Source: a bacterium
Lineage (GTDB): Bacteria; UBP15; UBA6099; JAJRTR01
Assembly (NCBI GenBank): GCA_024278215.1
Contig: JAJRTR010000052.1
Coordinates: forward strand, 46,303 to 66,302
Reading direction: 5' to 3'
Length of the DNA: 20,000 nt
Shown here: piece after piece, positions 2,854 through 20,000 of the stretch
Numbering within the stretch: position 1 is the first letter of the stretch
How the letters are laid out: the number at the start of each line of letters is the position of its first letter
Notes under the pieces: generated by a model
What the model was told of the DNA's origin: nothing
Database searches by the model: none
Seen by the model: only the letters and a program-made list of their open reading frames with translations
Program-made: the position numbers and the translations under genes

Positions 2854-5800
2854 GAAAGCCGGACATGGGAAAAAAGACACGCGAAAAACCGGAAACAGGT
2901 GCGCCGGGCGCCGGCGCGTCCTCCGCCGGGAGAGTGCTCCGCCTGAATGTCATGCTGCCGATTATTATCTTTGTCGTCATGGGTATGTCATTTGCTGTAA
3001 TAGCGATCTTTCAGGTCGGTACCAATGCGCGACGGGTTTCATTGGATAAACGCATCATCGATGCCGAAACCAACTACAACTATATGCTGGAGAACGACAC
3101 GAATCGCCTGGGCCAGACTATCGACGCGATTATGCTGAACAAGGACATCAGGGAGGCGCTTATCGCAAAGGACCGCGAAAAGCTTTTAGCTCTTTCCGCA
3201 TCCCAGTTTGAAAATTTCAGAGACAAGTACGCGACGACACACTTCTACTACATGCTTCCGGATCGTACAGTGTTGTTGCGTGTCCACAACCCTTCGAGAT
3301 ACGGCGATGTCGTGGACAGGCTGACAACGCTCGAGGCCGCTATCACTGGTAAGCCTTCCAGCGGTATCGAGTACGGCCCTTATCACACCTTTACGCTCCG
3401 TGTGGTGCATCCCTGGTATGTCGGTGATGAGTTGATCGGATTCGTGGAACTGGGCGAAGAGATCGGACACATCGCGCCGACCCTGGCGCAATTGCTTGAT
3501 TGCGATTTCATCTTCACGCTTTCCAAAAAGGGGCTGGACCGCGCAAAGTGGGAAGAAGGGCTTCGCATGATCGGCAGAACAGGCGACTGGGACCGTTATA
3601 AGTCGATTGTAGTCACCGGGCAGACACGAAGAAGCTTTTCCGATGCCGTTCGTGCCAGGATAGAACAATTATCAGGAGTGCACAAGAAAGGGCAGCTCGG
3701 CATTCTGTTCGCAGACGGCAACAAACATTATGGGATAGGCGTTTTCGGAGTTCGGGATATGGAGGAGACCGAAAGAGGACACATGGTTGTCCTGGTGGAC
3801 CTGACCCGTGATGTCGCTTTCGCAAGACGCGTAACCACCATCCTTTTGCACGTGCTGATCGGCTCTTCCCTGCTTCTGCTGCTGCTGCTTTCGCGGTTCC
3901 TGCGAAGCGCGGAAAACACTATTGTAGACTATGAATCGACGTTACAAAGAAACAGCGAGGAACTTGTTTTGCTCAATATGCAGCTTCGTGAAGATATCGA
4001 AGTGCGGAAACGGCTCGAAGAAAAACTTGTCGAACGCTCGACGGAACTGGACCTGATCTTCAACAGCGCGCCTGTAGTGCTCATATTGACAGACGGCAAC
4101 GCACGCATCGAGAAATACAACAAAGCGGGCGCTGTGCTGATGGATTGCTCCCCGGATAATGTCTCCGGGAGGCTCTGCGGCGATGTCTTGAAGTGTGTGA
4201 CTACCGCCGACGGCACGGAATGCGGCAGTGGTGAGGCATGCTCGTATTGTCATTTTCGCAATTCCGTCGAGGAAACATACAGGACGGGGAAAAGTATCGG
4301 TCCGATTGAAGTTGAACTCAACATTGACGACGGAGAGGCAAGAAGCGTCCGCTACTATATCATCAACACATCATATATGACATTGGGCGGTGAGGGGAAA
4401 GTCCTTATCTGTCTTTCCGACATAACGGAACAGAAAGCCATACGCGACACGCTGCAAAAGAACGATGAGCTTCTCAGGGATTTCCTGGACAGCGCAAACG
4501 ACATGATTCAAATCGTGGCTCCGGACGGAGGCATACTATACACAAACAACGCATGGCGCGAAACACTCGGATACACAGAGGAAGAGGTAGCCTCCCTGAA
4601 TATTCGGGACATAATCCACGCCGACAGCCTGCCCCATTGCATGGAATTGCTGGAAAAAATGTTTTCCGGCGAAAATATTGACTTTATTGATACCGTGTTT
4701 GTTACAAAATACGGCGACAGGATTGATGTCGAGGGGAATATCAACTGCCGTTTTGAAGAGGGCCGCCCCGTGTCCACAAGAGGCATTTTCAGGAATGTCA
4801 CAGAACGGAATATGATGCTATCCGAACTAAGGGAGAGTGAATCCAACCTTAATTCGATTATGGAGAATTCTCCCAACATCATTTCCTTGAAAGACATTAC
4901 GGGAAACTATATTTTCGTAAACAGGGTTTTCGAAAAAGTATTCGATATATCACGTGACGACATTGTAAGCGGAAACGATTACAACCTGTTCCCGCCGGAA
5001 ATCGCGAGCGTCATCAGGAAGAGCGATATGCAGGTTGTGAAATCCGGAAAGCAGATGGAATTCGAGGAAACTGTTTTCGTGGGCAACAGTCTGCAATCGT
5101 ACCTGACAGTAAAATTCCCCATCCTCGACAGTTTGGGAAATTCTGTTGCTATATGCAGCATGGGAACAGATATATCTTCGCGAAAAGAGATCGAAGACGC
5201 CTTGAAATCCCTCGCCGGGGAAACTGCTTCATACACCGGAGAGATGTTTTTCAAAGTCCTTGCGAAAAGTCTCGCCCGCGTTTTCAGCGCAAGATACGCG
5301 TTCATAGCCAGGTGCGATCCGGACAGGCCGGATAAAATCAGGACGATTGTCTTCTGTGATGACGGCAGGTATGTGGAGAATATCGAGTATGTGCTGGAAG
5401 GAACTCCCTGCGGTGAAGTATGCAAAACGCGCAGAATCGTTCTTTATGCGGAACACGTGCGGAAACACTTTGTAGATGATGAATCACTTGCGGATTTAAA
5501 CATTGAAAGCTACCTTGGGGCTCCTGTCCTCGATGCTTCCGGTAACCTGTGCGGTATCATAGCGGTCATGGACGATTCGCCGATGAGGGGTGTCGAAAGC
5601 AAGTTTTCGATCATTGAGGTTTTCGCCATGCGGACCGGTGCCGAGATAGACAGGCTGGACATAGAAAAGGAACTGAGGAACCAGCAGGATATACTCGAGG
5701 AAACTGTCGAAGAGCGCACTGCCGAACTGGCTGTTCTCAACGAGCAGTTGAGCCGGTTCTCCCGGAAATTGATTCGCGCCCAGGAAAAGGAACGCGCTAA

Positions 5801-6398
5801 CCTGTCGCGGGAGTTGCACGACCAGATCGGGCAGCTTATTACCGCTCTTTCCATGGGGCTGCAATGGCTCAGGATACAGCCCGGACTGGACCAGAATCGC
5901 GTGACCATGCTGGCCGACATAACTGAAAAGATATCCATTGAAACCCGCCGGATATGCAAGGGGCTGCGGCCTCTGGCGCTCGACCGCCTCGGCTTGCTGA
6001 GAGCAATTGAAGAGCTGACCAGGGAAACTTTTGAACACTCGGGCATCAACCCCAGTGTTTCAATCAGAGGTATCGACGAAGACAAAATACATCCCGATGT
6101 CGAGATCGACATTTTCAGAATTGTACAGGAAGCCTTTACGAATATAGTCAAGTATTCCGATGCCGACAATGTTTTTCTGAGTTTTTCCATGGAAAATGAG
6201 GAATTGATATTGTGCATCAAAGATGATGGCGTAGGTGCCGGAGATGTTAAGACACATAAGAGAGGTCTGGGCATTATGGGCATGAAGGAACGCGCGGAAA
6301 TGTTCGGGGGATCACTGGTGGTAAGTTCCGGTCCGGGGAAAGGAACGGAATTATTACTGCGAATTCCGTTTGATCGCACAACAGACGGGGAATATTAA
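2850..6398 (+). CDS. Membrane sensor histidine kinase, Cache-like periplasmic domain + 3 PAS + GAF + HisKA_3/HATPase (NarX/UhpB class)
   Basis: Two hydrophobic TM segments flank a Cache-like region (LRVHNP...YGD...R.T). PAS repeats end in DITE/NVTE/DISS; GAF segment (GTPC...SYLGAP...GIIAVMD); ERANLSRELHDQIGQ H-box; FRIVQEAFTNIVKYS; DDGVG; GLGIMGMKERA. GTG start overlaps the upstream stop (GTGA). Confidence 0.93.
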   Translation: MRKPDMGKKTREKPETGAPGAGASSAGRVLRLNVMLPIIIFVVMGMSFAVIAIFQVGTNARRVSLDKRIIDAETNYNYMLENDTNRLGQTIDAIMLNKDIREALIAKDREKLLALSASQFENFRDKYATTHFYYMLPDRTVLLRVHNPSRYGDVVDRLTTLEAAITGKPSSGIEYGPYHTFTLRVVHPWYVGDELIGFVELGEEIGHIAPTLAQLLDCDFIFTLSKKGLDRAKWEEGLRMIGRTGDWDRYKSIVVTGQTRRSFSDAVRARIEQLSGVHKKGQLGILFADGNKHYGIGVFGVRDMEETERGHMVVLVDLTRDVAFARRVTTILLHVLIGSSLLLLLLLSRFLRSAENTIVDYESTLQRNSEELVLLNMQLREDIEVRKRLEEKLVERSTELDLIFNSAPVVLILTDGNARIEKYNKAGAVLMDCSPDNVSGRLCGDVLKCVTTADGTECGSGEACSYCHFRNSVEETYRTGKSIGPIEVELNIDDGEARSVRYYIINTSYMTLGGEGKVLICLSDITEQKAIRDTLQKNDELLRDFLDSANDMIQIVAPDGGILYTNNAWRETLGYTEEEVASLNIRDIIHADSLPHCMELLEKMFSGENIDFIDTVFVTKYGDRIDVEGNINCRFEEGRPVSTRGIFRNVTERNMMLSELRESESNLNSIMENSPNIISLKDITGNYIFVNRVFEKVFDISRDDIVSGNDYNLFPPEIASVIRKSDMQVVKSGKQMEFEETVFVGNSLQSYLTVKFPILDSLGNSVAICSMGTDISSRKEIEDALKSLAGETASYTGEMFFKVLAKSLARVFSARYAFIARCDPDRPDKIRTIVFCDDGRYVENIEYVLEGTPCGEVCKTRRIVLYAEHVRKHFVDDESLADLNIESYLGAPVLDASGNLCGIIAVMDDSPMRGVESKFSIIEVFAMRTGAEIDRLDIEKELRNQQDILEETVEERTAELAVLNEQLSRFSRKLIRAQEKERANLSRELHDQIGQLITALSMGLQWLRIQPGLDQNRVTMLADITEKISIETRRICKGLRPLALDRLGLLRAIEELTRETFEHSGINPSVSIRGIDEDKIHPDVEIDIFRIVQEAFTNIVKYSDADNVFLSFSMENEELILCIKDDGVGAGDVKTHKRGLGIMGMKERAEMFGGSLVVSSGPGKGTELLLRIPFDRTTDGEY

Positions 6399-7395: not shown

Positions 7396-10131
7396 CTACT
7401 TTTCACCATTTTTCTGCAATTCACTGAGTGTACCGCCGATACCTTGATCGTCCAGCAGTCGCAGGACCCCCTTGCTGATCTGGTCGCCCTGAGCAGCAAT
7501 ATAGACATTTGAGTTGATGAGAATGTCTTCCCTTGTCATTTCGGTAAGGTTCCTGGCGAAATCGGCGTCTTCGATGCGACTGTTGGCTGCCATGAGGTTT
7601 ATCTTCTCGACGCTGAGTTCGTCCATAACATGATAAAGTTTTCTCTCTTCGATGCCCATCGCCGCCCTGAGGTCGGACACATTATTGATGGCGTCATTGA
7701 ATTTTTTGATGGGGTCCATTCCGGTCTGTATCATAAGAGAGTCTATCTGCGGGGAAACCGAAGGGGTATAGCTGTAGACATCGGGAGCCACCACAAGATT
7801 AGCCGGCGTCGAGACCATAGTGCCGCGCACCTGTACATAAGGTTTCCCGGCGGGTGTCGTGAAGTCTGTCACACCGGAGCCGGCGGTTATAAGCTGGTCT
7901 GTCCAGTTGATGCCGTCGGAGCTTGCCCATACGTCGAATCCTGTTACTGCGTCATTGGTAACGCCGACAATACTTGCATCTATATTATCACCCACATAAG
8001 CGGGGTTGGTTCTGTAGGAACCGTTCGGCAAGTATTCGAAGAACCTGTGGCCGGTAATTTCATTGTTCCAGCCGGGATTGCTGTCAAGACTGTCCGCGAT
8101 CTGGGTTGTACCGTAGAAAATATCCATCTCATTTACGGGGCCGCCGTCTGTCCTGCCGCCGCCCATTACACGTTCGACATTCGACATGCGGAATGACGCA
8201 TCCGGCTGTGCATTGAATTTAATAGTGAATCCATCCATCTGTCCGCCGGTTGCCATGTCGCAGTAAACTTCTTCATAAGCGCCGGCCTGCGTTATATCCG
8301 AGTTCGGTATCGAATCATAATTAGTCCTGCTTCCGGTTACTCCATAAACGCCGTCCCGGTATCCGGACAACCCGGCACTTAATGCCGGTTCTCCGACACT
8401 ATCTCCCTGGTCGCCGGTCCAGTCTGTACTGAGCGTGGTTATCTCGTCGATAGTGACAGCGCCGCTGCCGTCGAATACGGAAAAGTATGATTGCCATATC
8501 ACACTGCCCAGCGCGCCCCCGCCCCAGTACCTGACGGAAACTGTATAATCGATCGAACCGTCCGTCTGTGGATTCGCCGTGTTGACACTTATAACAATGG
8601 AGTGTGTATTCGCTTTATCGGGAGAACTTGTTGTTTTTACATCGGTGCCGAGTTGCAGATATCCAGGGTTTCCGCTTGGATCGACATCGACCATGTTGTT
8701 GAGACTGCTCATCCACTCCTGTTGCGTGTCGATCAGGAGTGCTGCTCCGGTCCGGTCCGTCAGCTTGAGATTCGAGAGCCCCAGTGCATTCGCGTGCAGA
8801 TTCAGGGCCGAGAGGTTGTCTCTCCAATTATCGCCGTTATCTGAGCCAATCTGGATCGAACCGGGGTCCGACAACTGGAGTGAAAGGTCGGTGACGGCCG
8901 GTGTGCCGTACTGTACTCCGTTGCTGTTAAGCGTAATCTCGGCCCGCAGGTATCGCTGATTGTAGTCAAAAGTAGCGCCGTTGTCGGTTATGGGAAGGGC
9001 GGTCCAGTCGCCGGGGAAAGCGGGATTGCCCGTCGCGCTTTCGTAAAGAACGATCTGCGCGCCCTGTCCGCCGGTGATAATGGAGTTATAGTTGAGAACC
9101 GCCTGTCCGCCTGATGTTCTCGTGTCGATAGGGGCGGTGTAATAGGATGCGGGGTTGGCAGCGATGTCTGTGAAATATTGCGAATAGAAAACCGCCGGTC
9201 TGGTGTCGCCAAGGAGCGTGGAGCCGAAATACATTGCTACCGGTTCATTGTTTCTGTTTGTAAGCTGAAGGTCCCATTTCGAGCCGACATCGACCTCTAT
9301 GTCGACAGAAGCGAGTGTGCTGAAACTATTGGTGGCGGTTCTGTCGAAGGTAATTGTATTGCCTGCAATTACACAATTGCTGGCGTTCGAGAGGTTTGCT
9401 CCCGCTTCGAAAGTCAGCGTTCCCTTCAACTGGCCGGTACCACCGACAGTCTCACCACCGATATAGAGTCTTGCGGTATATTTTCCTGTTGTCGGGTCGT
9501 AGCCGCTGCCGGGGGCGCTGCCGTCTACCCATATATCCATCGTGTCGTCATTTATGTCGCCTATCGGATTGTTCCAGTGTGCCTGTGTGTTCCAGTCCTG
9601 ATATGCGAGCTGCACATTGCCGGGTGCGCTGTTCAGGTCTATTAAAGACGAGTCGTAAACAGCGTTGGCGGACGCCCAGTCGGCCTGGGAGTCGAAAGTA
9701 TATTGTTGGCCTGTCGCTCCGCTCAGCAGTTGTTTGCTGTTGAATGTAACCGTTTCGGAAAGCCTGTCGATTTCGGCGAGGATGGAATCGACTTCGTCCT
9801 GCATGTCCTGTATGTCCGACGAGGATAGAGTGGCTTCGTTGGATGCCCTTACGGCCAGATCGCGGCCCCGCTGCAACAGGCTGTGTATCTCTTTCATGCC
9901 GCCTTCCGCCGTCTGGATCATGGATAAAGCGTCCTGCGTGTTCTGTATCGCTGTGTTTAATCCGCCTATGGTGGCACGCAGATTCGAGGATATGGCTATT
10001 CCGTGCGGGTCGTCCGCACCGCGGTTTATCCTTAGCCCCGACGAAAGTCTTTCCTTTATCGTTCCTGTTTTAGTGAAATGAGCTCTTCTGTCGTTATTAT
10101 TGACCATGGCCCAAAGACTATTGATTTCCAT
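7396..10131 (-). CDS. Large divergent flagellin-family protein (911 aa)
   Basis: N-terminal ERLSSGLRINRGADD...NTQDALSMIQTAEGG..EIHSLLQR.RDLAVRASN...IDRLSETVTFNSKQLLSG; C-terminal AINNVSDLRAAMG...AANSRIEDADFA...VLRLL. RBS AAGGGAGA upstream. Confidence 0.93.
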   Translation of the reverse strand: MEINSLWAMVNNNDRRAHFTKTGTIKERLSSGLRINRGADDPHGIAISSNLRATIGGLNTAIQNTQDALSMIQTAEGGMKEIHSLLQRGRDLAVRASNEATLSSSDIQDMQDEVDSILAEIDRLSETVTFNSKQLLSGATGQQYTFDSQADWASANAVYDSSLIDLNSAPGNVQLAYQDWNTQAHWNNPIGDINDDTMDIWVDGSAPGSGYDPTTGKYTARLYIGGETVGGTGQLKGTLTFEAGANLSNASNCVIAGNTITFDRTATNSFSTLASVDIEVDVGSKWDLQLTNRNNEPVAMYFGSTLLGDTRPAVFYSQYFTDIAANPASYYTAPIDTRTSGGQAVLNYNSIITGGQGAQIVLYESATGNPAFPGDWTALPITDNGATFDYNQRYLRAEITLNSNGVQYGTPAVTDLSLQLSDPGSIQIGSDNGDNWRDNLSALNLHANALGLSNLKLTDRTGAALLIDTQQEWMSSLNNMVDVDPSGNPGYLQLGTDVKTTSSPDKANTHSIVISVNTANPQTDGSIDYTVSVRYWGGGALGSVIWQSYFSVFDGSGAVTIDEITTLSTDWTGDQGDSVGEPALSAGLSGYRDGVYGVTGSRTNYDSIPNSDITQAGAYEEVYCDMATGGQMDGFTIKFNAQPDASFRMSNVERVMGGGRTDGGPVNEMDIFYGTTQIADSLDSNPGWNNEITGHRFFEYLPNGSYRTNPAYVGDNIDASIVGVTNDAVTGFDVWASSDGINWTDQLITAGSGVTDFTTPAGKPYVQVRGTMVSTPANLVVAPDVYSYTPSVSPQIDSLMIQTGMDPIKKFNDAINNVSDLRAAMGIEERKLYHVMDELSVEKINLMAANSRIEDADFARNLTEMTREDILINSNVYIAAQGDQISKGVLRLLDDQGIGGTLSELQKNGEK

Positions 10132-15670: not shown

Positions 15671-15731
15671 CTAAAGGCAATCCTGGAAATAGAAAGCTCA
15701 AGTGGACGCTATATAACTCAAGGAGTAGACC

Positions 15732-15926
15732 ATGTCTGTACAACCGGCTTCTTCACCAAATGACTATTATGGAGCATGGGGCGCGGCGCTCGCCCAGATA
15801 CTGTTTAATATGAGAGCGACAGCCGAGGTGCTCGCAGGCACTTATGACGAGATGGAAAAACACCAGGCACGCGCTCGCGAGACTTCATGGGAGCAAAACA
15901 TCTACAGAGTTGACATCCGGATTTAA
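15732..15926 (+). CDS. Small hypothetical protein (64 aa)
   Basis: Strong RBS AAGGAG 6 nt before ATG; same strand as neighbours; plausible helical composition. Confidence 0.65.
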   Translation: MSVQPASSPNDYYGAWGAALAQILFNMRATAEVLAGTYDEMEKHQARARETSWEQNIYRVDIRI

Positions 15927-16224
15927 GGGCCGCGAAGGAATATGACCGGAGTCCCCCTTCGGCTCTTTCCATCTCATGCGGCGGCTCCGCGCGCAACACA
16001 TTTTTCGTTCTCCGTTCATTATCAAATTCGGCGGCAGCACTTCTTTATGTCCCAATTGCTTCAATTAAACAGATAAATGTATTACCATAGTGGCTGAACG
16101 AAAACCCTAAAAGGACTATGGATAAAGGAATAATTGGCGAAAAGAGCAAACGAAGATCGGCAGAAAATATCAGGTACAAATACGAGGAAGACAGTTGTAA
16201 TCGCATGTAAGCGATGTATGGCGT

Positions 16225-16253
16225 TTGAAAAAACGCAATCTTCGCAATAAAAT
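16225..16253 (+). promoter_or_regulatory. Putative sigma70 promoter for the SepRS leader/gene
   Basis: TTGAAA-N17-TAAAAT; predicted TSS about 16260 coincides with the 5' end of a long stem. Confidence 0.6.
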
Positions 16254-16260
16254 CTTGAAA

Positions 16261-16422
16261 AGTGGTTGAGCGAAAAACTGATCCGTTAAGCCGGAATGTG
16301 TGAAAAGTGTTCGATATCGAGGCAGACGAAGGAGGCAATGCAACGCATTGTTGACTGAGGATAACGAAGATAGCGGGCAATTTGCGCACATCCCGGCAGG
16401 AGCAGGTTTCCGTTCAACCACT
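16261..16422 (+). ncRNA. Putative ~162-nt rod-shaped structured RNA (5' leader or co-transcribed ncRNA)
   Basis: Nested pairings AGUGGUUGAGCG/CGUUCAACCACU, GCCGGAAUGUG/CACAUCCCGGC, UGUUCG/CGGGCA, UAUC/GAUA, CAG/CUG, GGCAAUGC/GCAUUGUU. Most non-Watson-Crick positions are G-U on the + strand. Confidence 0.5.
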
Positions 16423-16468
16423 ACCATAAATATCTGGCGACAAAATACAGGATTGCGAAGGCTGAACT

Positions 16469-18382
16469 ATGAGACTTTTGATGATACATTCAAATCCGTT
16501 TTCATTCGAGATTACGGACAAAACAAAGTTCGCGGAAGAGATAGTGCCGCCGGTTGTGGACAGGGCTGAAGTGGATAATGCGCTCGTGGTTTTTGCCGCT
16601 GTCGAGCAGCATGATGCCGTCGAGCAGGAAAAAGTTTGCGGGAAAGCTTTCGCTGAAATAAAAAAGACATACGAGAACGTGGGTGCGTCGATAATCGCTC
16701 TGTATCCATATTCACATCTTTCCAACCGGCTCGCGCCGCCCGAAGTGTCACTGCGCCTGTTGAAAAATCTGCGTGGCCTTCTGGAAGACATGCCGCTGGT
16801 TCAGTGTCCGTTCGGATGGTATAAAAAATTCAGCCTCAACGGGATCGGGCACCCTGTGAGCGAATCGAGCAGGGTGATAGAGATCGACGGTCGCCCGCGG
16901 GAACAGAAAGTTATGGGCCGTGGCCGCGAACATCCTGTCGCCGCCATGAACCAGCAGTTCCGCGAGGTCTTCCTCGAACTCGGCCTCGACGAAATGATCA
17001 ATCCGGCGATTATCGACGACTTCCACATCTACAAACAGTACGGCCCGGAAGCGCCACTTATCCTCGACAGGGTTTTCTATATCGCGGGCCTCGACCGGGC
17101 TGATATCGGACTTGGCAAAAGCAAACTCGCAATAATAAATAAAATAGTCCCCGGATTCGACAAAGAGGAACAACTGCAAGCCCTTATGCGCGAATATAAG
17201 GAAGCTCTGATCGAGGCCGACGATTTTCTCGAAGAATTTGCCCTCAGGCTGAAAATCAGCGGCGAACAGGCCGGCGAAATCCTCGAAAAAGCATTCCCCG
17301 AATTCAGGGAATTGACGCCTGTTCCCATGACGCGCACACTGCGCTCGCACATGACAAGCAACTGGTTTCCCGTGCTCCAGCGCATGAGAACTCGATCAAC
17401 GCTGCCCGTGAAACTCTTCTCCGTGGGGTCCCGTTTCAGACGCGAGCAGCGCCAGGATGCGCAACATCTCTACGAAAGCACATCCGCGTCAATTGTTGTC
17501 ATGGACAACAATGTTACGATGGAAGACGGCAAAAAGCTGTCATACGACATCCTGAAAAAAATGGGGTTCAAGCGCTGCAAATTCGTAAAGAAAAAAGTCG
17601 CCAGCCGCTACTACGATCCGGAAACGGACACAGAGATATTCGTAAATTATAAAGGAGCACAGATCGAGGTCGGTAATCTTGGCTTCTACGCGCCGGAATC
17701 ACTCAAGAACTATGACATCGATGTGCCGGTATTCAACATCGGTTTCGGTGTCGAGCGTATGGCTATGATCCTCGGCGGCGGAACCGACATCAGAGCTCTT
17801 GTATACCCGCAATTCTATGAAGAAGTATCATTCACAGACGAAGAACTCGCCGGAATGCTCACGCCATCCGAAAAACCGAAGTCGGAAGAACTCCTGAAAG
17901 CTGTGGCCGCAATGGCAGAGCTGGCACGAAAGTCGAAAGACATCACCGGTCCCGCCGAAGTCGACCTTTTCTGCGGTGATATTCAGGGGGAAAAGGTTAC
18001 TATAACCCTGTTCAATTGGGATGCCGGCAAACCGCTTCTCAGCAAAGCCGCGGAAAACGAAATAGTAGTATATGAAAACGGCATATACGGACTCCCCCCA
18101 AAAGCAGACGCCCTGGGCGGCAAATTTGTAAAAATCTACAACAACGGAGTCAAAACAGGACTGCTCTTCATAGATATGATGATCTGCGGATTCGCAGCGC
18201 GTGTTGAAAAAGCAATCGACGCGGGCGAGACCGGGCAGCTCGAGGAAAAATGGAAAGTCGCCAAAAGACCGCAACAGGTCAATCTTGAAATACCCGAAGC
18301 CGGATACGATTACGTGCAGGGTCTGCACAAGCCCATTAAAGTCGGCGGCCCGCTTTTCTGCGGCCTTCGAGCAAAGTGGTAG
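16469..18382 (+). CDS. sepS: O-phosphoseryl-tRNA synthetase (SepRS) homologue with N-terminal archaeal-type ThrRS editing domain
   Basis: About aa 1-138: MRLLMIHS..AVE..LYPYSHLS..PFGWYKKF..GHPVSESSR (archaeal ThrRS editing domain). From about aa 149: GREHP, EMINP, YKQYGPEAPLILDRVFYIAGL, TLRSHMTSNWF, LPVKLFS..RFRREQRQD..HL..SAS, SRYYDPETDTE, VPVFNIGFGVERMAMI, YPQF, NEIVVY, GPLF (SepRS signatures). Confidence 0.9.
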   Translation: MRLLMIHSNPFSFEITDKTKFAEEIVPPVVDRAEVDNALVVFAAVEQHDAVEQEKVCGKAFAEIKKTYENVGASIIALYPYSHLSNRLAPPEVSLRLLKNLRGLLEDMPLVQCPFGWYKKFSLNGIGHPVSESSRVIEIDGRPREQKVMGRGREHPVAAMNQQFREVFLELGLDEMINPAIIDDFHIYKQYGPEAPLILDRVFYIAGLDRADIGLGKSKLAIINKIVPGFDKEEQLQALMREYKEALIEADDFLEEFALRLKISGEQAGEILEKAFPEFRELTPVPMTRTLRSHMTSNWFPVLQRMRTRSTLPVKLFSVGSRFRREQRQDAQHLYESTSASIVVMDNNVTMEDGKKLSYDILKKMGFKRCKFVKKKVASRYYDPETDTEIFVNYKGAQIEVGNLGFYAPESLKNYDIDVPVFNIGFGVERMAMILGGGTDIRALVYPQFYEEVSFTDEELAGMLTPSEKPKSEELLKAVAAMAELARKSKDITGPAEVDLFCGDIQGEKVTITLFNWDAGKPLLSKAAENEIVVYENGIYGLPPKADALGGKFVKIYNNGVKTGLLFIDMMICGFAARVEKAIDAGETGQLEEKWKVAKRPQQVNLEIPEAGYDYVQGLHKPIKVGGPLFCGLRAKW

Positions 18383-18684: not shown

Positions 18685-19075
18685 TCTACGGACAGACAGG
18701 CAAGTATCAATAACATTCACAGGCAGCCGTCAACATAAACTCCATAGGCGCGTTGAGTATCGTGTCAACGATGAAAAGACGCAACCCGGATTTCTCACAA
18801 AGAAATCCGGAAAATCGCGAGAACCCCCATTCTACTGCGTTGCGTCGGCGATTCGGGATCGGTCACATACCTGCAGTATGCTCCCTCACCATTCACTTGC
18901 CGCGCCTTGCATATCTTGCGTATTTACAAGTGCTACACGAAAGTAGTGCATACACACATTTTTCATCGTTTTGAGGTTAATGACTGGAATAAATTACAGA
19001 CCGGCCCTGCGTGTCTTTATAGGAAAAACTGAATTCTGACAAAAATTCAGAAACGAACATGTTCAGTTGCAAATA

Positions 19076-19084
19076 TGCTATAAT
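19076..19084 (+). promoter_or_regulatory. Extended -10 promoter element upstream of the secreted repeat protein
   Basis: TGcTATAAT in an AT-rich region about 85 nt before ATG 19169. Confidence 0.55.
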
Positions 19085-19168
19085 AAATGTATGATTAGCA
19101 GGTTTTTCCTATTATCCCATAATATCCAGAATGCTATTTTAACAATCAGTTTTCCGGGGAGTTCAAGG

Positions 19169-20000
19169 ATGAAATACTTTAAGGTAATATTTATTTTATT
19201 TTTAATATCTACCGCCGCAACAACTGCTTATGCGGCTGTTCCCGCCCTGATAAATTACCAGGGGCATCTCAAGGAAAGCGGTTCGGCGGTCAGCGGGACA
19301 AAAAACATCGAATTCAAGTTATATGATGCGCTGTCGGGCGGCTCGGAGTTGTGCGCGTCCGGTGCGCAGAGCTTAACAGTCACAAACGGACTGTTCTCGT
19401 ATAAAATCGGCTCTTCCGGTTGCGACTTGACTGCCGTTGACCTGAGCAGTGCTGTCTATCTCGAGATCATTGTCGAAGGCACTACCCTTTCACCAAGGGA
19501 ACAGGTGACAGGTGCGGCATATTCTGTCGAAACGGAAGCGGTAAACGTGGAATTCACACCATCCGGGGGGCTGTCCGCGACAGATGTTCAATCCGCGATT
19601 GAAGAACTCGATGCTGAAAAGCTTTCCGCCGCCGGCGATGCAATGACCAGCGACCTGAACGTCGGCGCGAATGTGCTTGTAGCAGGTGACATCACGGCAG
19701 CGACGGGAACGATTTCGGCGGCGAGTTTCTCCGGCGACGGCAGCGCACTCACGGGTATCAGTTCGACAGACAATACGAAAGTGCTGAAAACCGGTGACGT
19801 AATGACGGGCGACCTCGAAGTGAATTCCGACATAATTGCATCGGGCAATATTACGGCAGCGACGGGAACGATTTCGGCGAATGCTTTCTCCGGCGACGGT
19901 TCAGCTTTAACAGGGATAGTTGTATCAGGTTCTGTTGCGAAAACCGGCGACGCGATGACAGGCGATCTGAATGTCGGCGCGAATGTGCTTGTAGCAGGTG
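19169..20000 (+). CDS. Secreted tail-fibre/adhesin-like repeat protein (3' truncated by window; absent from the ORF track)
   Basis: Open from ATG 19169 to the window end. MKYFKVIFILFLISTAATTAYA signal peptide, AVPALINYQGHL..FKLYDALSGG..GLFS..YLEI..LSPR domain, then 51-53 aa repeats GDxMTxDL...ITAATGTISAxxFSGDGSALTGI. RBS GGGGAG upstream. Confidence 0.85.
   Translation, partial: MKYFKVIFILFLISTAATTAYAAVPALINYQGHLKESGSAVSGTKNIEFKLYDALSGGSELCASGAQSLTVTNGLFSYKIGSSGCDLTAVDLSSAVYLEIIVEGTTLSPREQVTGAAYSVETEAVNVEFTPSGGLSATDVQSAIEELDAEKLSAAGDAMTSDLNVGANVLVAGDITAATGTISAASFSGDGSALTGISSTDNTKVLKTGDVMTGDLEVNSDIIASGNITAATGTISANAFSGDGSALTGIVVSGSVAKTGDAMTGDLNVGANVLVAG

Follow-up and report, generated by a model that had tools for sequence, protein, structure and literature searches.

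The window analysed here is a 20,000-nucleotide stretch of a draft bacterial genome (contig JAJRTR010000052.1, positions 46,303 to 66,302), and the gene under study encodes an O-phosphoseryl-tRNA synthetase (SepRS) with a serine-editing domain of the threonyl-tRNA synthetase (ThrRS) type at its N-terminus. Where the SepRS of Archaeoglobus fulgidus has glutamates 418 and 420 in its anticodon pocket, the window protein has asparagine and aspartate, with a tryptophan between them. As judged from alignment and tree, this N-W-D tripeptide is not private to the window gene: one deep bacterial branch of SepRS carries it as a fixed signature, along with K521, S525, a position 526 that is hydrophobic, and G626. 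We consider it probable that the pocket has been rebuilt but is still specific for G34-C35-A36 on bacterial tRNA-Cys of the A37 type, and that it has not been loosened toward tRNAs that read stop codons.

Archaeal tRNA-dependent synthesis of cysteine begins with SepRS, which is also the workhorse enzyme when phosphoserine (Sep) is to be genetically encoded. A deep bacterial branch appears to have rebuilt, once, the very pocket that engineers mutate. This branch would be a natural experiment, offering a second way of reading the anticodon GCA, and its members are a candidate enzyme type for code-expansion work. Fusions of a ThrRS editing domain to SepRS have already been published as a class; the new point appears to be the once-evolved N-W-D pocket, which is common to that class and its unfused bacterial kin.

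Residues at the anticodon contacts

The features that bear on the pocket are these, in window coordinates:

16469..18382, + strand: whole gene, ThrRS-editing-domain::SepRS fusion, 637 amino acids, ATG start, TAG stop (open reading frame list)
17834..18379, + strand: C-terminal anticodon-binding domain, residues 456-637 (phmmer; predicted local distance difference test, pLDDT)
18011..18049, + strand: strand end and loop contacting the anticodon loop, FNWDAGKPLLSKA; N516 = A. fulgidus E418, D518 = A. fulgidus E420
18332..18358, + strand: C-terminal PIKVGGPLF, residues 622-630; G626 opposite A. fulgidus R522

A reading of the window made from its letters alone (the sequence-only reading) had proposed that ExE is changed to NxD at A. 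fulgidus E418 and E420, and the alignments agree. With HMMER, residues 504-548 of the window protein aligned to the A. fulgidus chains so that N516 pairs with residue 418 and D518 with residue 420 (F515 is encoded at 18011-18013 and N516-W517-D518 at 18014-18022). A full-length alignment has the same register at high posterior probability, with F-E-N-E and F-E-K-E of the M. jannaschii and M. maripaludis enzymes opposite F-N-W-D. At the C-terminus, where the sequence-only reading had set the archaeal ending KIDVRGP[LV]F, A. fulgidus 'kidvrgplf' (518-526) indeed pairs with PIKVGGPLF, bridged via homolog P0103. The coordinates are exact, with the two segments at 18011-18049 and 18332-18358. In the AlphaFold2 model N516 closes the strand 508-516, and W517 and D518 start the next loop.

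Around residue 418, the wild-type chain (2du3/2du4) reads 'vveeeent' and the chain of 2du5/2du6 reads 'vvnenent'. The Protein Data Bank (PDB) title of 2du5 is 'E418N/E420N mutant complexed with tRNAOpal' (Foldseek table), which agrees with the statement of the sequence-only reading that Asn substitutions here were used to engineer suppressor recognition. Fukunaga and Yokoyama are said to have engineered the A. fulgidus E418N/E420N enzyme, with tRNA-Opal and tRNA-Amber, in 2007. We take each of the two glutamates to touch a particular base of the anticodon, an assignment that we assume here. The window enzyme shares Asn at 418 with the engineered one and differs from it in having Asp at 420 and an invariant Trp at 419. 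An enzyme that reads suppressors as the engineered one does would need Asn at 420 as well as at 418, and a UCA or CUA tRNA to charge; here Asn is found at 418 only. The change in the window enzyme is also natural, ancient and coupled to others, and no suppressor tRNA was found in its host.

Against A. fulgidus SepRS with tRNA-Cys bound to it (2du3/2du4), the core and the anticodon-binding domain are shared (E = 1.9e-94), N530, G627, P628 and F630 are conserved, and L541 is hydrophobic at the position of I444. The two differ in E418→N516, E419→W517, E420→D518, G427→S525, P428→K526 and R522→G626. They also differ at the N-terminus, where an editing domain replaces the extension in the window protein, and in that the tRNA-Cys of its host has A37, not G37. 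The SepRS feature of two glutamates at A. fulgidus 418 and 420 is absent from the window protein (N516, D518).

Distribution of N-W-D among SepRS homologs

We aligned 146 distinct homologs with MAFFT, taken from two protein searches (the best 120 of 910 matches and the best 120 of 1142). N-W-D is present in 77 of the 146, which diverge down to ~40% identity, and N, W and D are each invariant in them (77/77). Another 68 carry E-x-[D/E], with Glu at the first site throughout (68/68) and Asp (44) or Glu (24) at the third; a single homolog has K-D-E at the contact sites. Since Asp fills the second contact in 44 of the 68 E-type sequences, it is the commoner state there outside the methanogen and Archaeoglobus enzymes. 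Both contact positions do differ from those of the methanogen and Archaeoglobus enzymes, as had been proposed; an Asp at the second is not unusual. On this alignment, the real differences are the E-to-N change at the first site, the fixed Trp between the sites and coupled changes nearby, and the two-glutamate feature marks a sub-group of SepRS, not the whole family.

The nearby positions divide in the same way. K521 is found in 73 of 77 N-W-D rows; S525 in 70 of 77, versus Gly in 62 of 68 E-type rows; position 526 is hydrophobic in N-W-D rows versus Pro in 67 of 68 E-type rows; and G626 is found in 55 of 77, versus Lys or Arg in 53 of 68. Among the matches listed, the N-W-D set bears bacterial source names throughout ('bacterium', Poribacteria, Firestonebacteria), and the E set bears archaeal ones (Bathyarchaeota, Hadarchaeales, Hecatellaceae, Odinarchaeia, Lokiarchaeota).

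A FastTree phylogeny of 109 rows drew on 47 of the 77 N-W-D sequences, every other E-type row and 27 open reading frames (ORFs) from metagenomes, with columns 512-530 taken out beforehand. On this tree the N-W-D label requires one change, and all 60 non-N-W-D rows lie on one side of a branch with a Shimodaira-Hasegawa-like support of 100. Editing-domain fusions (precomputed Pfam) occur in 42 of the 77 N-W-D homologs versus none of the 69 other listed homologs. The label 'long N-terminal domain' needs 5 changes on the same tree, which means that what fills the N-terminal slot was acquired, lost or exchanged several times.

Two N-W-D-type homologs from outside the window, P0044 (903 amino acids) and P0064 (911 amino acids), carry an N-terminal SepCysS-like domain dependent on pyridoxal phosphate (PLP) (PF00266/PF05889, residues ~66-377) in the slot of the window protein's editing domain. 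They are natural single-chain SepCysS::SepRS fusions, each nested in the tree among editing-domain-fused sequences. Wording for such a fusion was not found in the main text of PMC8762117.

tRNAs and stop codons of the host genome

The host genome (G000) is a 4.55-Mb draft in 207 contigs and is 95% complete. ARAGORN finds 47 tRNAs in it, and all 46 Rfam tRNA matches are in that list. Two are tRNA-Cys(GCA), at 8112-8185 of contig C135 and 58203-58275 of contig C6; no UCA, CUA or UUA anticodon is among the 47. These two tRNA-Cys, both with the loop CUGCAAA and U73, are the only candidate SepRS substrates found in G000. ARAGORN found no tRNA-Asn in this genome, so its tRNA set is incomplete. For tRNA-Sec, G000 gave only matches below the gathering score, coinciding with tRNA-Ser, tRNA-Leu and other ordinary tRNAs. 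SelA had no match in G000, and the best SelB match there (181.7 bits) falls under the 242.25 cut-off and covers model positions 1-266 of 581 only.

The sequence-only reading had offered a non-canonical tRNA-Cys, a UGA-reading tRNA or tRNA-Sec as partners of the changed enzyme. Neither of the latter two turned up in G000 in the ARAGORN, Rfam and SelA/SelB searches, and in place of a non-canonical tRNA-Cys there are only the two GCA genes just described; a count of GCA, UCA and CUA tRNAs among the 47 gives GCA alone, in those same two. What stands of that reading is the changed contact residues and the SepRS core; its new tRNA partners are not borne out in this genome.

The stop codons give a similar picture. 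ORFs of at least 300 codons in G000 end in TGA 1280 times, TAA 735 times and TAG 487 times (n = 2502). In a crude test, pairs of open segments (each at least 150 codons) lying in one frame with a single stop between them are divided by TGA in 381 cases, TAA in 173 and TAG in 136, which is close to the proportions among the terminators; the slight TGA excess, 55% among split pairs versus 51% among terminators, is not counted as evidence. For G000 we see nothing that points to recoding of stop codons, and CysRS and CysK are present alongside the pathway.

Two further tRNA-like sequences were noted in G000. A 94-nucleotide 'tRNA-Arg(CCG)' on contig C65, reported by ARAGORN only, was rejected for its weak fold, its many G-U pairs and mismatches, and the lack of an Rfam match. 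A divergent tRNA-Gly(UCC) with U73 (contig C29, 5786-5855) barely reaches the Rfam tRNA gathering score (29.2 bits). A tRNA-Gly with U73 is, as argued in the part of Mukai et al. 2022 available to us (PMC8762117), why a free editing domain would be risky in bacteria.

SepRS and tRNA-Cys across the order

SepRS scores above the cut-off in 8 of 12 other genomes of the order and in none of 28 more distant bacteria sampled. All nine SepRS genes in the 13 genomes of the order (window included) are of the FNWD type and have the editing-domain motifs. tRNA-Cys genes were found in 11 of the 12 sister genomes (loci L031-L056). Across the order, 26 tRNA-Cys loci represent 25 distinct genes (L041 = L054); all read GCA by ARAGORN, and all 25 have the loop CUGCAAA and U73. 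They fall into two families. Family A always adjoins tRNA-Val(GAC); genes of family B stand alone and are often duplicated. The acceptor and D stems differ between the families, and the anticodon loops are identical. G000 has both families, in its genes on C135 and C6.

The tRNA-Cys found beside E-type SepRS genes has G37 (L084, L112), and that beside C-terminally truncated SepRS genes nearest the N-W-D side has A37 (L092, L093). This split by type of neighbouring SepRS is a weak hint. The truncated genes are metagenome SepRSs without an anticodon-binding domain, with a tRNA-Cys(GCA) carrying A37 directly after each: in L092 the ORF ends at 5894 and the tRNA lies at 6084-6157, and in L093 the ORF ends at 1094 and the tRNA lies at 1083-1154. 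This is the published SepRS-deltaC arrangement. In the tree both fall on the side of N-W-D, and L092 shares 52% identity with the window core. Some Parcubacteria SepRSs also lack the anticodon-binding domain, according to the portions of PMC5424206 cited here.

A probable rebuilding of the pocket and the readings that compete with it

On the reading that we favour, the core would charge tRNA-Cys(GCA) with phosphoserine, and SepCysS from elsewhere in the genome would turn Sep-tRNA-Cys into Cys-tRNA-Cys, both as expected from family membership. The fused editing domain would clear Ser-tRNA-Cys, as Mukai et al. proposed. The pocket would have been rebuilt once: the first glutamate and the C-terminal Arg/Lys would have been lost together, the invariant Trp added, and the second acidic residue kept as Asp. 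D518 would preserve the contact made by the carboxylate of E420; with the facing Arg/Lys gone (G626), N516 would turn a charged pair into a neutral one; and W517 would add a stacking surface.

Archaeal tRNA-Cys has G37, at the centre of what is A36-A37-A38 in the bacterial anticodon loop, and the rebuild might be an adaptation of an archaeal enzyme to that loop. This is suggested by the A36-A37-A38 of the order's tRNA-Cys together with the G37/A37 split of the four SepRS-adjacent tRNA-Cys. We regard the adaptation as speculative because a Chloroflexi enzyme of the E-x-E type also accepts A37. A36-A37-A38 is the recognition motif of MiaA, according to PMC5874877, from which we cite in part, and MiaA is encoded in G000 (280 bits).

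Several points weigh against the favoured reading. No assayed N-W-D-type enzyme was found in the literature, and the tested Chloroflexi type is E-x-E, so that we infer the charging of GCA tRNA by the window enzyme. No tRNA gene adjoins an N-W-D-type SepRS in five genome loci (L010-L014) or five metagenome loci (L075-L079), and none lies beside the SepRS within the 20-kb window; gene neighbourhood therefore points to no tRNA partner. Asn at the first site is the engineered change that enables UCA and CUA reading, so it is chemically plausible that base 34 is discriminated somewhat less strictly. The link to A37, or to its isopentenylated form i6A37, is a weak hint from four neighbouring tRNA genes and one bacterial order, and E-x-E Chloroflexi enzymes accept A37 tRNA too (PMC5424206, in the sections consulted). 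A tRNA may be missing from the draft in 207 contigs. Finally, CysRS, CysK and an adjacent CysE-like gene are present in G000, so the tRNA-dependent route is not the sole way to Cys or Cys-tRNA.

Could the E-to-N change have relaxed or redirected anticodon recognition, so that a stop-codon-reading tRNA, tRNA-Sec or another non-GCA tRNA is charged and Sep or Cys inserted at UGA or UAG? The first site does carry the same Asn as the A. fulgidus enzyme crystallised with tRNA-Opal, no published assay of the N-W-D type was found, and the tRNA inventory of the draft is incomplete. We nevertheless think it unlikely, given the 47 ARAGORN tRNAs without a UCA, CUA or UUA anticodon (with 46/46 Rfam tRNAs in that list), the sub-threshold tRNA-Sec matches, the absence of a SelA match, the partial SelB match, the ordinary use of TGA as a terminator (1280/2502) with split pairs in nearly the proportions of the terminators (381/173/136), and GCA anticodons in 25 of 25 distinct tRNA-Cys-like genes of the order. 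The third site is still acidic, unlike that of the engineered mutant. That N, W and D do not vary at all among 77 sequences of a deep bacterial clade fits a specific, constrained contact better than relaxed recognition. A variant is that the N-W-D branch, which holds all 42 fusions seen, has a base-34 readout naturally loosened like that of E418N and chooses its tRNA mainly by U73 and the acceptor stem, backed by proofreading. We hold this to be unlikely; if true, such enzymes would be ready natural scaffolds for inserting phosphoserine by way of UCA or CUA suppressor tRNAs, and natural recoding of stop codons to Cys would be possible in some hosts.

The two conserved tRNA-Cys families of the order raise another prospect, namely that the pocket change chiefly selects between families A and B, with SepRS serving one and CysRS the other. 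An isoacceptor preference of SepRS and CysRS is known in Methanosarcina mazei (PMC8762117, from the passages available), and the well-assembled G001 (94% complete), which lacks SepRS, showed family A only. The families, however, share the CUGCAAA loop and U73, and because their anticodon loops are identical the pocket change alone cannot tell them apart. Co-occurrence of family B with SepRS across the order is also imperfect: no family B was seen in the SepRS-positive G002 (93% complete) and G005 (83%), and the reverse holds in G004, G009 and G012 (67-88% complete), where family B was seen and SepRS was not. N-W-D is present in unrelated phyla as well, by the source names Poribacteria and Firestonebacteria, in which such a pair of tRNA-Cys families is not known, and we judge this prospect improbable. 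That N-W-D is a neutral clade marker, in an anticodon-binding domain that matters little in bacteria, strikes us as very improbable indeed. The SepRSs that lack this domain and sit beside tRNA-Cys on the N-W-D side of the tree (L092, L093) speak for it, but three adjacent residues are invariant in 77 of 77 sequences at ~40% identity, and the C-terminal strand that faces them has changed in step, which is unlike neutral drift.

Fold and domain architecture of the fusion

The remaining features of the gene are as follows:

16469..16879, + strand: archaeal-type ThrRS serine-editing domain, D-aminoacyl-tRNA deacylase (DTD)-like fold, residues 1-137 (PF08915, 6.4e-37)
16703..16723, + strand: editing-site segment YPYSHLS with H83 (= P. 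abyssi P80-F81-A82-H83 region) (alignment)
16808..16873, + strand: PFGWYK ... GHPVSESSR, with W117, Y118, K119 and E132 (alignment to P. abyssi)
16880..16918, + strand: linker, residues 138-150, in place of the canonical SepRS N-terminal extension (start of TIGR00470, pLDDT)
16919..17833, + strand: SepRS class II catalytic core and insertion domain, residues 151-455 (Pfam, TIGR00470, PDB chains)
17342-17356, 17477-17491, 17609-17614 and 17732-17758, + strand: Sep-pocket motifs RSHMT, STSAS, YY and FNIGFGVER, respectively

Matches from Pfam, TIGR00470, PDB chains and Foldseek identify the gene as a ThrRS-editing-domain::SepRS fusion; by these sequence and model comparisons it is a bacterial O-phosphoseryl-tRNA synthetase of the published class. 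The sequence-only reading had recognised the SepRS and missed the N-terminal ThrRS editing domain. PF08915 (Archaea-specific editing domain of threonyl-tRNA synthetase) is matched over its whole profile (1-137 of 137), archaeal ThrRS editing-domain chains match residues 1-137 (E = 1e-23), and the modelled domain superimposes on the M. jannaschii ThrRS editing domain 4rrf_E with a TM-score of 0.92 and a root-mean-square deviation of 1.3 Å (Foldseek). The domain aligns over its whole length with its counterparts from M. jannaschii and P. abyssi, and H83, W117, Y118, K119 and E132 stand opposite P. abyssi H83, Y119, Y120, K121 and E134. With the roles of the P. abyssi editing-site residues taken from PMC4491819 (in part), the serine-editing site of the fusion looks intact.

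The rest of the protein is a SepRS. Pfam finds the PheRS-like class II core PF01409 (1.1e-41) in the 637-residue protein, and the SepRS equivalog TIGR00470 (NCBIfam; cut-off 380.65 bits) scores 440.2 bits over residues 151-636 (model positions 43-531 of 533). A TIGR00470 search of the host's own genome finds SepRS at one locus, the window gene. The M. jannaschii, M. maripaludis and A. fulgidus SepRS chains in the PDB match the gene product with E values of 1e-109 to 1e-94. Residues 468-637 alone match SepRS chains (phmmer, E = 1.6e-12 to 2.8e-11), and Pfam SepRS_C reaches 22.9 bits, under its 26.9 cut-off. The Sep-pocket motifs, which had been described as intact, are so: RSHMT (292-296), STSAS (337-341), YY (381-382) and FNIGFGVER (422-430) have the same residues in the M. 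jannaschii SepRS and are invariant in a homolog alignment (A1). The AlphaFold2 model, computed from 47 relatives, has a mean pLDDT of 86.3, mostly above 90 in the anticodon-binding domain and below 50 at residues 143-147 of the linker, which are disordered in it; its top Foldseek match is the A. fulgidus SepRS (1.4e-42).

Comparison with published SepRSs

All papers compared here were seen in part. Mukai et al. 2017 (PMC5424206) described a single bacterial SepRS whose N-terminus is a serine-editing domain of the ThrRS type, and proposed clearance of Ser-tRNA-Cys as its task. Three such fusions, from Desantisbacteria-like bacteria and a Nitrospirae metagenome-assembled genome, were described by Mukai et al. 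2022 (PMC8762117). The published set includes ADurb.Bin236 OQA87054.1, fusions from Desantisbacteria-like bacteria, and that of Nitrospirae bacterium HyVt-268. As in these, PF08915 takes the place of the SepRS N-terminal extension in the window protein and is joined on by a short linker; the residues for serine editing are conserved, the gene belongs to a bacterium, and SepCysS has its gene at another site in the genome. We saw no structural difference from the published descriptions. In our literature search, 'tRNA-Thr-ED' together with SepRS was used in these two papers only. In the portions of their text that were available, we found no discussion of the residues equivalent to E418 and E420 or of an N-W-D pocket, although figures may show them. 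The string 'NWD' was not found in those 2017 supplements that could be searched, and text searches for literature on Glu418/Glu420 of SepRS gave nothing relevant.

For the assays of 2017, bacterial SepRSs were taken from a Parcubacteria bin and from a Chloroflexi metagenome gene (PMC5424206), and the Chloroflexi-type helix-deleted enzyme charges both A37 and G37 tRNA-Cys in vitro. It resembles the window enzyme in being a bacterial SepRS with an A37-type tRNA-Cys. Unlike the window enzyme, it keeps E-x-E ('VVE[KT]EAGKRLIGPAGF'), lacks the helix after the I444 position and lacks an editing domain, and it lies on the opposite side of the tree's main split from N-W-D. About 40 of 80 metagenome loci belong to this helix-deleted group, with ORFs that start MATFD...; all are E-x-E and on the E side of the tree. 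They are assigned to the Chloroflexi type by these N-termini and the helix deletion, without an exact sequence match. The primer of the tested Chloroflexi JGI gene encodes MATFDVND (PMC5424206); this N-terminus has no exact match in the 80 loci, only a family resemblance. Neither that gene nor Parcubacteria KPJ56532 is among the best 120 of either protein search.

Pathway partners and genomic context

SepCysS is encoded on contig C65 (516.8 bits versus a cut-off of 365.25), and a paralog on contig C121 scores 338.6 bits. A transfer-messenger RNA with the tag ANNELALAA, a bacterial-type CysRS and MiaA mark the host as bacterial. On C65 (locus L029), ORFs of 65-68 residues at 3973-4201 abut the start of SepCysS (4198-5316); they have no Pfam match and could be SepCysSn-like adapter candidates. 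A PLP enzyme gene of Cys/Met metabolism lies divergently upstream of SepCysS on the same contig.

The other genes of the window code for two-component regulators, a 911-residue flagellin, a glycosyltransferase, a methyltransferase and a protein with a bifunctional-nuclease domain; none is related to the pathway. An Rfam scan of the window at the gathering threshold returned no family. The ~800 bases between the bifunctional-nuclease-domain gene and the SepRS start (15671-16468) hold neither a convincing ORF nor an Rfam family that reaches the gathering score. The flagellin (7396-10131, - strand) has Flagellin_N at residues 24-139 and Flagellin_C at residues 809-893, with an insert of ~670 residues between them that has no Pfam match. 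An ORF at 19067-19999 (+ strand), open at the window end, encodes a hydrophobic N-terminus followed by repeated '...TGDxMTGDLxV...ITAATGTISAxxFSGDGSALTGI' units; its sole Pfam match, weak and sub-threshold, is to a Chlorovirus glycoprotein repeat.

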